Shown: positions 60,007 to 62,739 of the stretch, piece after piece
Layout of the letters: each line of letters starts with the position of its first letter
How positions within the stretch are numbered: position 1 is the first letter of the stretch
NCBI GenBank assembly: GCA_964632315.1
Contig: CAZWEM010000001.1
Span: forward strand, 64,001 to 128,000
Source: an uncultured archaeon
GTDB taxonomy: Archaea > Asgardarchaeota > Lokiarchaeia > Sigyniarchaeales > SOKP01
Length of the DNA stretch: 64,000 nt
Reading direction: 5' to 3'
Program-made: the position numbers and the translations under genes
Notes under the pieces: model-generated
Database searches by the model: none
Told to the model about the DNA's origin: nothing
What the model saw: only the letters and a program-made list of their open reading frames with translations

Positions 60007-62052
60007 ATGTCAGAACATAACTTACAAATCTGTCGATTTTGTCAAAGAAATATACAGTTGGCATACTATTGTGAAGATTGCGGAGTTAGTTGTTGTTCTG
60101 ATTGCCTTCATGAGGAAAAAAATGAATATTTTATATGCCAAGACTGTAATTCCAAAAATATTGAGGCATCTGATTCTGGAAAGAAAAAGTATTGTAAAGA
60201 ATGTGGTAGTGAAAACTTAACTCAATCAAGCCAATTACTAAAATCGTGCCCAAAATGTCATTCCACATCAATAATAAATATATATGAGAAGAAGGAAGAA
60301 TTAGAAAAGAGTTTCTTGAACTTAATTAAAAATGTACGAAATTTTTTAACTCCTTTCAGCGAATTAGTCAACTCAATGTATCAATTAAGGCAAATGATAA
60401 AAAATGCTAGAGCTCCCCCTATAAAATGCTTTCACTTTTCCAACCTTGAACCCGATTTGTTAGCTTTATTCAAATTACTTGTTTATGCTAAGGATAACTT
60501 CCATGAAAAGATTACAATTTTGTTCAATCATCTCTCACTGAATAAAGAATACTTTTTTGATATTTATACTCAACCTAACGCCAATGTAATAATCATCGAG
60601 GGAATATTAGAGAATCTAACTATAAATTATGAATCAATTCAAGAGTATGTTTCGAATAACGTTAAAACAATCAACTCAAGTTTAGATACAATAAAGAAAA
60701 ATCTCAAGTTTATTGATAAAATAACTTATTATTTTGATACATATAAAAAGTATTTGAATTTAGCAGAAGATGAAAAACCTATATATTCAATTCACGCTAA
60801 GCTAGCCAATGGCTTAAATACACATGATAAATACAAAAAAAGTAAAGGAGTACTTTTTATTACCAACTTGGATTTATCTTTTGTACAATTTAGTGGGAGA
60901 TTTAAAAAGAAAAAACAAGCGATTTTTAAAGCACCAGTAAATGATTTGATAAAAATTAGAGTACATGGAAAGGTTTTTAAGAAACTTTATATTGAATTTC
61001 CCTACGGGAGGTATGAATTCACTCTTCCTCCCAATTCTATAAATAAAGTATTAGATTACATTGTTTTAGCTCGAAATTTCGAAGATACAATAAAATTTGA
61101 TGAAGATGCTGCACAAAAATTAGATGAAATTTATATTGATTTAAACGAAATCACAGCATTTATTGAAGAGACTATAAATTCTTTTTTCAGTTTAAAATGT
61201 CAATACAATTCTGAGCATCAAAAGAGTGAACAACAACAGACAAATCAATATTTCCCGAATTTTTCAAATCCACAAATAAGAAATAGTCCTAATCCCGCTT
61301 ATATTAATACTTTTCAAAATGATATCAATAGGAATGCTTATAATCAAGAATTACCAAGAGCTTACTCAAGAGTGTATCCTCCTAACTCCTATATTTATCA
61401 ACCTGGGATAAGAGCAGATAACTCTGATAACTATTATCAATATGGAAATAGAGAACCATTATATAATAAATATGAAAGTAGATTTATCCCACAAACAATA
61501 TTTAATCCTCAAAGAATCCAAAATTATGAATCTTTAAGGTATTCTTCACCTTATAATATGCATTATCTCGATCCTGATGATAAAAATGTCTTAATGAAAA
61601 AATTAGAACAAGCAAATAAAAAGGGGCAATATGATCCTTATATGAGAAACCCCGCCGCTTATAGTCATGAATTGGAATCAAGTAATTTCCACGATAATAA
61701 ATATTATAATGATTTCTCTAAAAATCATCTGTCTGAGTTATTTGATCATGGTGAATTCCTAAATAATCCAATTAAGATGCCTAAACGCTATTCTAAACAA
61801 GTAAGAGAAAAAAGTAAAGAGATGAGTGAATTAGAAAAGGAGAGATATGGATTAGATGAAACCTTAAAAGCATTAGACACGAAATTCGATCAAGGCGTCA
61901 TTTCAGAAGTTGATTATTTTCGAACCTTCAAGAATCTACAAAAACAAATCTATGATATTGACCAAAAAATAGAATTACTGGGACAACAAATCGAAGATAT
62001 GAACTTTAAGCCCCATTTAAAAGATATTGAAGGAAAACGTTATTTTTCTTAA
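60007..62052 (+). CDS. Multi-domain protein: Zn fingers, coiled coil, PH/GRAM-like domain, N/Q/Y/P-rich region, Vps23/TSG101 steadiness-box-like C-terminus
   Basis: Six CxxC pairs at the N-terminus; KGVLFITNLDLSF PH-like signature; C-terminal KERYGLDETLKALDTKFDQGVISEVDYFRTFKNLQKQIY. Confidence 0.75.
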   Translation: MSEHNLQICRFCQRNIQLAYYCEDCGVSCCSDCLHEEKNEYFICQDCNSKNIEASDSGKKKYCKECGSENLTQSSQLLKSCPKCHSTSIINIYEKKEELEKSFLNLIKNVRNFLTPFSELVNSMYQLRQMIKNARAPPIKCFHFSNLEPDLLALFKLLVYAKDNFHEKITILFNHLSLNKEYFFDIYTQPNANVIIIEGILENLTINYESIQEYVSNNVKTINSSLDTIKKNLKFIDKITYYFDTYKKYLNLAEDEKPIYSIHAKLANGLNTHDKYKKSKGVLFITNLDLSFVQFSGRFKKKKQAIFKAPVNDLIKIRVHGKVFKKLYIEFPYGRYEFTLPPNSINKVLDYIVLARNFEDTIKFDEDAAQKLDEIYIDLNEITAFIEETINSFFSLKCQYNSEHQKSEQQQTNQYFPNFSNPQIRNSPNPAYINTFQNDINRNAYNQELPRAYSRVYPPNSYIYQPGIRADNSDNYYQYGNREPLYNKYESRFIPQTIFNPQRIQNYESLRYSSPYNMHYLDPDDKNVLMKKLEQANKKGQYDPYMRNPAAYSHELESSNFHDNKYYNDFSKNHLSELFDHGEFLNNPIKMPKRYSKQVREKSKEMSELEKERYGLDETLKALDTKFDQGVISEVDYFRTFKNLQKQIYDIDQKIELLGQQIEDMNFKPHLKDIEGKRYFS

Positions 62053-62088
62053 AATAGAAGATAAATTATGAAAAGGAATTAACTATAA

Positions 62089-62739
62089 TTAAGATCCTTC
62101 TAATTCCTTCCTCAACTTTTCGATTTCATCCTCCAATTTCGCTTTTGTACGAATTTCAGGTTCTTCTTCATCATCAAATTCAGAAATGTATTGTAAATCA
62201 TCTACAGGAACATCTGGTACTTGTCCACTCTGATCTAATAGCATTTCAGTTTCAAGTTGGTTAAGTTCATCTGTCACATCAATTGCTAGGTCAATTTCAG
62301 GATCTCCTGCTAATATCTCAGCAGATTCTTCTATCTCTGAAACGTAAGCCTCAGAATCTTCTGCTATTTCTGCTATTCTAGTGGGAGCTGCCTTTGTTGC
62401 AATTGTCTCTAATTCATCCCTAATTCCTCCCATTAAATCACCAGTCATCGAAATCATTTGTCCTTCTTCAATTGCTTCTATTTGCCTTTCAATTTTTGCT
62501 CGAATATTATTCGCTCTATCAACTTTTTGTTGATATTGTTTAAATTGAATCAAATAATTTTTAGCTCTCTCCCGCTCGCCTCTTTGTAAAGCAATTTTTG
62601 CGTTCTTTCGTGAAATTTCCGCTCTTTTATTATATGTTTTATTCGCTAATGCGATCTTCCGGATATGTGATTTTGCTTTTGTCACTAATTCTTCTTTTTC
62701 TTGGTCTTTTCGAGGGAATAATTTTTTTTTAAGTCCCAG
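62089..62739 (-). CDS. ESCRT-III subunit, Snf7 (Vps20/32/60-like) family
   Basis: (M)GLKKKLF N-terminal helix; AKIALQRGERERAKNYL..KIERQIEAIE hairpin; acidic C-half with VPDVP (MIM2-like) and EDEIEKLRKEL (MIM1-like). Confidence 0.9.
   Translation of the reverse strand: MGLKKKLFPRKDQEKEELVTKAKSHIRKIALANKTYNKRAEISRKNAKIALQRGERERAKNYLIQFKQYQQKVDRANNIRAKIERQIEAIEEGQMISMTGDLMGGIRDELETIATKAAPTRIAEIAEDSEAYVSEIEESAEILAGDPEIDLAIDVTDELNQLETEMLLDQSGQVPDVPVDDLQYISEFDDEEEPEIRTKAKLEDEIEKLRKELEGS

Follow-up and report, generated by a model that had tools for sequence, protein, structure and literature searches.

A probable UEV-less, Vps23-like ESCRT-I subunit of the Asgard Znr_CC_PH_SB family, encoded tail-to-tail with an ESCRT-III gene

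The way in which Asgard archaea direct their ESCRT machinery to membranes is relevant to how eukaryotic membrane trafficking arose. The described system closest to the locus analyzed here is the Asgard family Znr_CC_PH_SB (also Znr_PH_CC_SB; asCOG cog.011556), which was published in 2024 as a predicted membrane adaptor of the ESCRT-I type and likely ESCRT-I component (Makarova et al. 2024, mBio, PMC10936438). Its members combine three zinc modules, a helical region, a PH domain, and a steadiness box, and they are found only in Asgard archaea. One of them, Lokiarch_16740, had been tabulated as a Vps23 homologue in a 2018 review. The literature consulted describes the family by sequence analysis only, and a search of it for experimental work on any Znr_CC_PH_SB protein, or on the family, found none. 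Yeast Vps36 likewise joins a PH domain with zinc fingers (Makarova et al. 2024, PMC10936438), and full-length Vps36 is reported to be missing from Asgard genomes. In TACK archaea, CdvA acts as a membrane-directed adaptor that is encoded beside an ESCRT-III gene; it has a PRC barrel, it binds the winged-helix tail on CdvB, and its hairpin is reported as homologous to the steadiness box. Among the ESCRT-III proteins, Loki CHMP4-7 (KKK44605.1, Lokiarch_16760; PDB 9FN1) forms helical tubes and deforms vesicles (Melnikov et al. 2025, PMC11791191).

The window, a stretch of 64,000 nucleotides, contains a gene for a 681-aa protein that belongs clearly to Znr_CC_PH_SB. A first-pass annotation made from the letters alone had proposed this ORF, its six CxxC pairs, a PH-type motif, a steadiness-box tail, and a convergent ESCRT-III gene 36 nt away, all of which are present (Table 1). 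It had also taken the architecture to be undescribed, and in this it was wrong, as both the architecture and its reading as ESCRT-I are already in the literature. The assignment to the family follows from the identical architecture, the similar length, the gene order, and the match of the neighboring gene product to Lokiarch_16760 (E 1.3e-90 over its full length to PDB 9fn1_U, Loki GC14_75 CHMP4-7). Judged from architecture, length, and gene order, the product appears to be the Lokiarch_16740 orthologue in a Lokiarchaeum-related Asgard genome. In Lokiarchaeum GC14_75, where the locus is annotated cog.011556, the order is C69 peptidase, L35Ae, the Znr_CC_PH_SB gene, MetE (which only some genomes have here), and a convergent Vps20-family ESCRT-III gene. 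The order here matches, with MetE absent and the two ESCRT genes consequently only 36 nt apart, and nothing essential sets this protein apart from the published family. We collected 260 full-length homologues from Asgard metagenome-assembled genomes (MAGs). Of 301 genomes sampled across the phylum, 236 carry a member, and 61 of 70 genera are represented, with Asgard MAGs as the named sources. A search of the 681-aa protein against NCBIfam gave no match.

Table 1. Features of the convergent gene pair, in positions of the window
Feature	Position	Strand	Basis
Znr_CC_PH_SB family gene, 681 aa (probable Lokiarch_16740 orthologue)	60007..62052	+	ORF, homologues, gene order
N-terminal zinc module, residues ~9-85: 12 Cys as six CxxC pairs	60031..60261	+	Family invariance
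Helical region, three long helices, residues ~92-250	60280..60756	+	AF2 full-length model
GRAM/GLUE-type PH domain, residues ~256-363, with basic loops KYKKSKG and GRFKKKKQ	60772..61095	+	VIA, Pfam
Disordered N/Y/P/S-rich linker, residues ~419-592, with conserved islands	61261..61782	+	pLDDT, composition
Steadiness-box helical hairpin, residues ~597-675	61795..62031	+	AF2, profile vs PDB
A/T-rich 36-nt spacer separating the convergent stop codons	62053..62088	.	Sequence
ESCRT-III gene, Vps20/32/60 (CHMP4-7) class	62089..62739	-	Pfam Snf7, PDB 9fn1_U

The structural model fixes the order of the parts as zinc module, helices, PH domain, disordered linker, and hairpin. All three parts of the family definition are found: the zinc modules, the helical region (92-245) with the PH fold (256-363), and the steadiness box. 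The CxxC pairs lie at residues 9/12, 22/25, 30/33, 44/47, 63/66, and 81/84. They are not a product of chance, since all 12 cysteines are invariant across 53 diverse family members, at identities that fall to 18-25%, and twelve cysteines suffice for three Cys4 sites. AF2 models residues 1-100 as all-beta with a pLDDT of 84.6. Of the zinc-binding folds that the first-pass annotation had considered for this module, FYVE finds no support and was rejected, as the basic R(R/K)HHCR motif is absent from residues 1-100 and Pfam FYVE_2 matches only at E 2.1. In the full-length model the module is followed by helices 92-135, 147-178, and 191-245, each with a pLDDT above 95.

The suggestion of a GRAM/GLUE-type PH domain stands by fold and by Pfam matches across the family. 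The motif that had prompted it, KGVLFITNLDLSF, occupies residues 280-292 (nt 60844-60882), within the range it had been given. In VIA comparisons, the domain aligns with the Lam6 GRAM domain (5yqr; Z 13.6, rmsd 2.6 Å, 109 residues aligned), with MTMR2 (Z 13.3), and with the EAP45 GLUE domain (2hth_B; Z 11.6), so that a PH fold is common to this protein, Vps36/EAP45 GLUE, Lam6, and the myotubularins. Among 51 family PH segments, Pfam bPH_3 matches 24, GRAM 13, and Vps36 GLUE 5, and some members thus pass as GRAM or GLUE; the segment of the 681-aa protein itself has no Pfam match at E 0.01, and the PH profile reaches yeast Vps36 in the PDB only at E 0.076. In contrast to Vps36 and ESCRT-II, the protein lacks winged-helix ESCRT-II domains, and its zinc module lies ahead of the PH domain and does not interrupt it. 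DH-PH proteins ranked at the top of the Foldseek search with the full model, but a RhoGEF reading was rejected, since the PH part alone superposes and the long alignments have an rmsd of 7-16 Å. The linker of about 175 residues is rich in N (14.6%), Y (11.8%), and P (9.6%) and has a pLDDT below 50 apart from a helix at 523-538; islands at about 491-507, 523-538, and 571-579 are conserved among close relatives. None of the P[ST]xP, YPx(n)L, PPxY, or MIM1-consensus motifs occurs in the 681-aa protein.

The two helices of the C-terminal hairpin (597-628 and 634-675) are modelled by AF2 with a pLDDT above 95, and the stretch that had been read as a steadiness box, KERYGLDETLKALDTKFDQGVISEVDYFRTFKNLQKQIY, corresponds to residues 611-649 (nt 61837-61953), inside the interval 61828-61980 originally proposed. 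When a profile of the family tails is compared with the PDB, the best match among solved structures is the yeast Vps23 core (2f66_A, E 1.3e-6), with TSG101 at E 4.4e-3 and VPS37B at E 0.058. Pfam Vps23_core matches 17 of 34 family tails, at best with E 4.3e-7, and SHOCT a single one (E 0.0024); the tail of the 681-aa protein itself has no SHOCT match at E 10. The homology of the tail to the steadiness box is established at the level of sequence profiles. Vps23 and TSG101 share with this protein the C-terminal hairpin, for which packing against the Vps28 N-terminal hairpin is predicted here. Vps23 lacks the zinc and PH modules, and the 681-aa protein differs from Vps23 in having neither a UEV domain nor a P[ST]xP motif.

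A complex model with the genome's own Vps28, a check that the first-pass annotation had proposed, places Vps28 residues 7-40 against tail residues 627-653. Its ipSAE is 0.78, compared with 0.00 for the best of three controls; of 80 solved complexes, 58 reach this mark, as do 2 of 110 mismatched pairs. The pass may reflect the predictor's memory of solved structures, or likeness to them, because Vps23-Vps28 is a textbook pair with solved complexes. All contacts (100%) recur in each of the three runs, and the partner has a pLDDT of 79 or more. Odinarchaeal Vps23 binds Vps28 in a 2:1 ratio. The tail profile also matches the N-terminal hairpin of the same Vps28 (E 1.6e-8). On this modelled interface, it may be supposed that the hairpin binds Vps28. 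The lack of a UEV domain, likewise part of the original proposal, is borne out: neither UEV nor UQ_con matches the 681-aa protein, and the best UEV match genome-wide has an E of 0.54. The genome therefore shows no UEV-Vps23, although divergent Asgard UEV domains could escape the Pfam model. A 298-aa zinc-ribbon gene adjoining Vps28 was also considered and set aside, as it encodes a multi-pass membrane protein that is not Vps23-like.

The convergent neighbor passes Pfam Snf7 (38 bits, cut-off 27.3), and by sequence it is the orthologue of the main filament-forming Loki CHMP4-7, with which it shares its position relative to the steadiness-box gene. As had been noted, it lies outside the canonical cluster; ESCRT-III, Vps4, Vps25, and Vps22 genes are found on another contig (C21). 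The tail-to-tail pairing occurs in nearly all of 80 close genomes. It is kept in 18 of 20 loci of other families of the phylum that have lost the remaining flanking genes, with a stop-to-stop gap of 0-163 nt in 17 of those 18. The linkage proposed for checking across related genomes is conserved well past close relatives, and the outcome that the first-pass annotation had named as refuting its proposal does not occur. As the two genes converge, they are not co-transcribed.

Taken with the published family, these observations make it most likely that the 681-aa protein acts as a Vps23-like ESCRT-I subunit that has no UEV domain. In such a role, the lysine-rich loops of the PH domain, perhaps together with the zinc module, would set the protein on a membrane or on cargo; the hairpin would then pair with the N-terminal hairpin of Vps28, and Vps28 could link via Vps22 and Vps25 to a polymer of ESCRT-III, of which the convergent neighbor would encode the main, CHMP4-7-type subunit. 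Both the membrane binding and this order of recruitment are presumed from the domains and the model. Several observations weigh against an ESCRT-I assignment. The single sequence scores 20.3 bits against Vps23_core, below the 26.8 cut-off, and short hairpins of this kind also match coiled-coil families, among them APG6_N, which recognizes 17 of 34 tails. The hairpin follows a disordered linker, whereas in Vps23 a long stalk helix runs directly into it. The Vps28 gene is on another contig, the conserved neighbor being ESCRT-III and not Vps28, and the convergent arrangement gives no co-transcription. At least two other proteins of the genome end in similar, steadiness-box-like hairpins that could compete for the same partner.

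The same sub-threshold score, and the similar scores of several coiled-coil families, would also fit a generic coiled coil or SHOCT-like hairpin with no role in ESCRT, in which case the adjacency to ESCRT-III would be inherited gene order, as the entire neighborhood is collinear in close relatives. We consider this very improbable, as SHOCT matches one of 34 tails and Vps23_core 17, the top solved structure for the profile is Vps23, the complex-model controls score 0.00, and in other families of the phylum the pairing persists where L35Ae and DHQS no longer flank it. That phylum-wide neighbor, being ESCRT-III, could instead suggest a direct adaptor resembling CdvA, in which the membrane-bound protein recruits or nucleates the adjacent ESCRT-III, bypasses Vps28 and ESCRT-II, and uses its hairpin for self-association. 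The reported homology of the CdvA hairpin and the steadiness box, the Pfam CdvA matches to 2 of 34 tails, and the linker islands and C-terminal KRY[FY][ST], which could be docking motifs, are in keeping with this. It nevertheless appears unlikely: the tail profile fits Vps23 far better than CdvA, the model puts the hairpin on Vps28, and the genes converge and form no operon. In domain content, the protein has zinc and PH modules and CdvA a PRC barrel. From its length of 216 aa and its Snf7 match at 9-162 of a 198-aa form, the neighbor also appears to lack the winged-helix extension that CdvA binds. Direct adaptation of this kind is compatible with the ESCRT-I reading and does not exclude it.

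The zinc module leaves room for a further reading, also compatible with an ESCRT-I subunit, in which it is of the cross-brace RING, B-box, or ZZ type and binds ubiquitin or an E2, replacing UEV as cargo sensor or acting as an E3. RING, B-box, and ZZ domains make up most of the weak VIA rows for the module (Z 3-4), and Pfam zf-B_box matches the 681-aa protein at E 0.016, under the cut-off. Several homologues carry the NCBI name "B-box zinc finger protein," and E2-type genes are present in the genome without a recognizable UEV. On the other hand, every structural match stays below Z 5 (at best Z 4.0 in a wide VIA search with the module folded alone, with nothing better than E 0.25 from Foldseek), the ligands are cysteines only, without the histidine pattern typical of RING or B-box, and Makarova et al. 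(PMC10936438) read the N-terminal module as three zinc ribbons; we therefore hold this reading to be quite doubtful. It would be more of a speculation, and improbable to a similar degree, that the two convergent genes, paired across the phylum, work as a self-contained unit in which the zinc/PH/steadiness-box protein directly positions or nucleates the CHMP4-7-type polymer on membranes, and that its zinc module with the GLUE-like PH domain is the archaeal origin of the head for binding membranes and ubiquitin that eukaryotic Vps36 acquired later.

The family is a plausible targeting subunit for lineages without a recognizable UEV-Vps23. To the published description, our analysis adds the retention of the ESCRT-III pairing in loci of other families and a genome in which UEV-Vps23 is not seen. 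The conserved pairing, the modelled Vps28 fit, and the GRAM/GLUE-type PH domain together make the protein a well-defined target for the existing in vitro Loki ESCRT-III system.

The 5' end of the neighboring gene deserves a brief comment. In contrast to Loki CHMP4-7, the gene here appears to start at CTG, the codon at the originally proposed end, 62739, and the first canonical start is a GTG at 62685. Relatives have GTG or TTG at the position of this CTG, followed by a conserved GLKKKLFPRK, and 62739 is a reasonable start for the ESCRT-III ORF.

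The first-pass annotation had presented the zinc, PH, and steadiness-box modules of this 681-aa protein as a candidate new ESCRT adaptor architecture. The observation is confirmed and its domain reading is largely right, but the literature already contains both the architecture and its reading as part of ESCRT-I. In Makarova et al. 2024 (PMC10936438), Znr_PH_CC_SB, alias Znr_CC_PH_SB (asCOG cog.011556), is made up of three zinc ribbons, a PH domain expected to bind membranes, a coiled coil, and a steadiness box; the authors consider it a likely ESCRT-I component that eukaryotes lack and that was probably ancestral in Asgard archaea. 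Lu et al. used cog.011556 as a "Steadiness/Vps23 box" family, and in a 2018 review table the Asgard homologue of Vps23/TSG101 is Lokiarch_16740 and the Vps20/32/60-class ESCRT-III protein is Lokiarch_16760. The 681-aa protein is taken as the orthologue of Lokiarch_16740 on the basis of its architecture, its length, and the order of genes around it, together with the match of its neighbor to Lokiarch_16760. The additions made here are modest, namely, a convergent pairing with ESCRT-III that is phylum-wide, placement of the PH domain in the GRAM/GLUE type, and a modeled Vps28 interface; from sequence and models, the protein is a predicted ESCRT-I component.

The open reading frame, CxxC pairs, KGVLFITNLDLSF motif, tail segment, and convergent spacing were all found where first placed. 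As 12 of 12 cysteines of the CxxC pairs are invariant across 53 aligned family members with identity down to ~20%, the noted features are real and under selection. An AlphaFold2 model built with a 53-sequence alignment (mean pLDDT 79.6) is confident for residues 5 to 415 and 597 to 672, with residues 419 to 592 disordered save one short helix. Foldseek matches offered a DH-PH reading of the whole model, of which only the PH part aligns on closer look. Residues ~239 to 363 superpose on GRAM-type PH domains, those of Lam6 (Z 13.6, rmsd 2.6 Å, 109 residues) and MTMR2 (Z 13.3), and on the ESCRT-II GLUE domain of EAP45 (Z 11.6), a fold that bears out the GRAM/GLUE-type domain first proposed. Among 51 relatives, this segment has Pfam matches to bPH_3 (24), GRAM (13), and Vps36 GLUE (5). 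The protein's own PH segment has no Pfam match at E 0.01, and the segment profile matches yeast Vps36 weakly (E 0.076). The zinc module folds alone with pLDDT 84.6; no convincing structural relative was found by Foldseek (best E 0.25) or VIA (best Z 4.0, with weak matches to RING, B-box, ZZ, and TFIIE-type fingers), and a FYVE reading was rejected, the FYVE basic motif being absent. Four islands conserved among close relatives, in the otherwise variable linker and at the C terminus, could serve as short docking motifs; neither the MIM1 nor the late-domain consensus matches any of them.

Coordinates of features (window positions unless a contig, C, of the source genome or a comparison locus, L, is given)
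Feature	Position	Strand	Detail
681-aa ORF	60007-62052	+	36 nt from convergent ESCRT-III stop codon
Six CxxC pairs			residues 9-84
KGVLFITNLDLSF motif			residues 280-292
C-terminal segment first noted			residues 611-649
Conserved island	61477-61527		F-x-x-Q-x(3)-NP-x-R-x-QNY
Conserved island	61573-61620		short helix EKNxLMRKLEQ
Conserved island	61717-61743		SKNHLSELF
Conserved island	62026-62049		C-terminal KRY[FY][ST]
ESCRT-III, first canonical start	62685	-	GTG
ESCRT-III, upstream frame	62686-62739	-	(M)GLKKKLFPRK
ESCRT-III, upstream codon	62739-62737	-	CTG
Hairpin, L103	C17:24910-25116		E 4.9e-7; protein at least 509 aa
Hairpin, L104	C14:54167-54385		E 4.0e-6; protein at least 480 aa
799-aa protein, C59	L010:6975-9374	-
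316-aa protein, C21	L009:5131-6081	-
Small GTPase	L096:2659-3375		between family and ESCRT-III genes
Small GTPase	L015:3688-4230
Small GTPase	L098:3008-3589

For the C-terminal hairpin, a steadiness box had been proposed and a generic SHOCT or coiled coil named as the alternative. The single 681-aa sequence scores below the Vps23_core cut-off (20.3 versus 26.8 bits). A tail profile built from 34 family sequences has yeast Vps23 as its best solved-structure match (E 1.3e-6), followed by TSG101 (4.4e-3) and VPS37B (0.058), and Pfam assigns Vps23_core to 17 of the 34 tails versus SHOCT to 1. The canonical cluster (CHMP1-3-type ESCRT-III, Vps4, Vps25, then Vps22) lies on another contig, in agreement with the first placement of the gene outside it, and Vps28 (196 aa) is encoded on a third. 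A model of the tail with Vps28 gives ipSAE 0.78 (best of three controls, 0.00). The same mark was attained by 58 of 80 solved complexes and by 2 of 110 mismatched pairs, counts that apply only roughly because custom alignments went into the model. All contacts (100%) are common to the runs, with partner pLDDT of at least 79, and Vps28 residues 7 to 40 meet residues 627 to 653. The model makes tail-Vps28 binding a supported prediction; because Vps23-Vps28 headpieces are solved, its high score may reflect likeness to known structures. The tail profile also matches the N-terminal hairpin of this Vps28 (E 1.6e-8), and at least two further proteins of the genome end in similar hairpins, their long upstream parts being lysine/proline-rich or helical and unrelated to the 681-aa protein, in keeping with the many steadiness-box adaptors already described in Lokiarchaeia (PMC10936438). 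No UEV was detectable in the genome (best E 0.54); of three E2-type matches, two exceed the UQ_con cut-off and the weakest falls below it.

The neighboring ESCRT-III protein matches Loki CHMP4-7 (Lokiarch_16760, PDB 9FN1) over its full length (E 1.3e-90). Its frame runs upstream of the first canonical start through a conserved N terminus to a CTG codon where relatives have GTG or TTG, pointing to initiation at CTG or else to a variant or an error in this assembly. Across 80 species-level genomes with close relatives, contig permitting and with one exception, its orthologue lies downstream on the opposite strand, directly adjoining or after an inserted MetE. Because the entire region is collinear among these genomes, sampling was extended to 20 loci in other families of the phylum, where the gene no longer adjoins L35Ae and DHQS; an ESCRT-III gene still converges on the family gene in 18 of them, 17 with stop-to-stop gaps of ~0 to 163 nt. 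The linkage to ESCRT-III, whose loss in related genomes had been named as part of a refutation, is therefore conserved across the phylum, and three of four distant metagenomic relatives share it. The partner is CHMP4-7-like in most of these families. In one large family of the sample, GTDB family f9 (L140, L141, L150, L153-L156, L158), the protein is shorter (~530 aa) and the ESCRT-III closer to the CHMP1-3-type paralogue than to CHMP4-7, at low identity. The neighborhood table of PMC10936438 gives, for Lokiarchaeum GC14_75, C69 dipeptidase, ribosomal protein L35Ae, Znr_CC_PH_SB (650 aa), MetE, and a convergent Vps20-family ESCRT-III, an order also seen around relatives and, without MetE, in the window; no discussion of the pairing was found in the text of that paper, though its table lists it for Lokiarchaeum. 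Several distant loci also have Ras/Arf-family small GTPase genes next to the family gene or close by.

In a large protein collection, 260 relatives were recovered at full length (650 to 715 aa); NCBI often labels them "B-box zinc finger protein", and their named sources are all Asgard MAGs. A profile search of cluster representatives matched 172 clusters, with the six CxxC pairs and the pattern G-x-[IL]-S-x(2)-[DE]-[YF] in the tail preserved in many full-length representatives. In a sample of the phylum, the protein was detected in 236 of 301 genomes and 61 of 70 genera, and a few of the sampled families yielded no member. One contig titled "Candidatus Nanopelagicaceae bacterium" (L048, DATKTW010000152.1) has the complete Asgard gene arrangement on either side of the family gene and is probably mis-binned.

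Elsewhere in the source genome, ~4 kb from the canonical ESCRT-III/Vps4 cluster, lies a gene for a 316-aa protein in which a bacterial-type PH domain (bPH_5) accompanies DUF1648. Another protein, of 799 aa, has a C-terminal Vps28 C-domain together with DDRGK, UFM1-E3-ligase-like, and PCI/winged-helix matches; it might connect ESCRT-II with UFM1-like or PCI modules.
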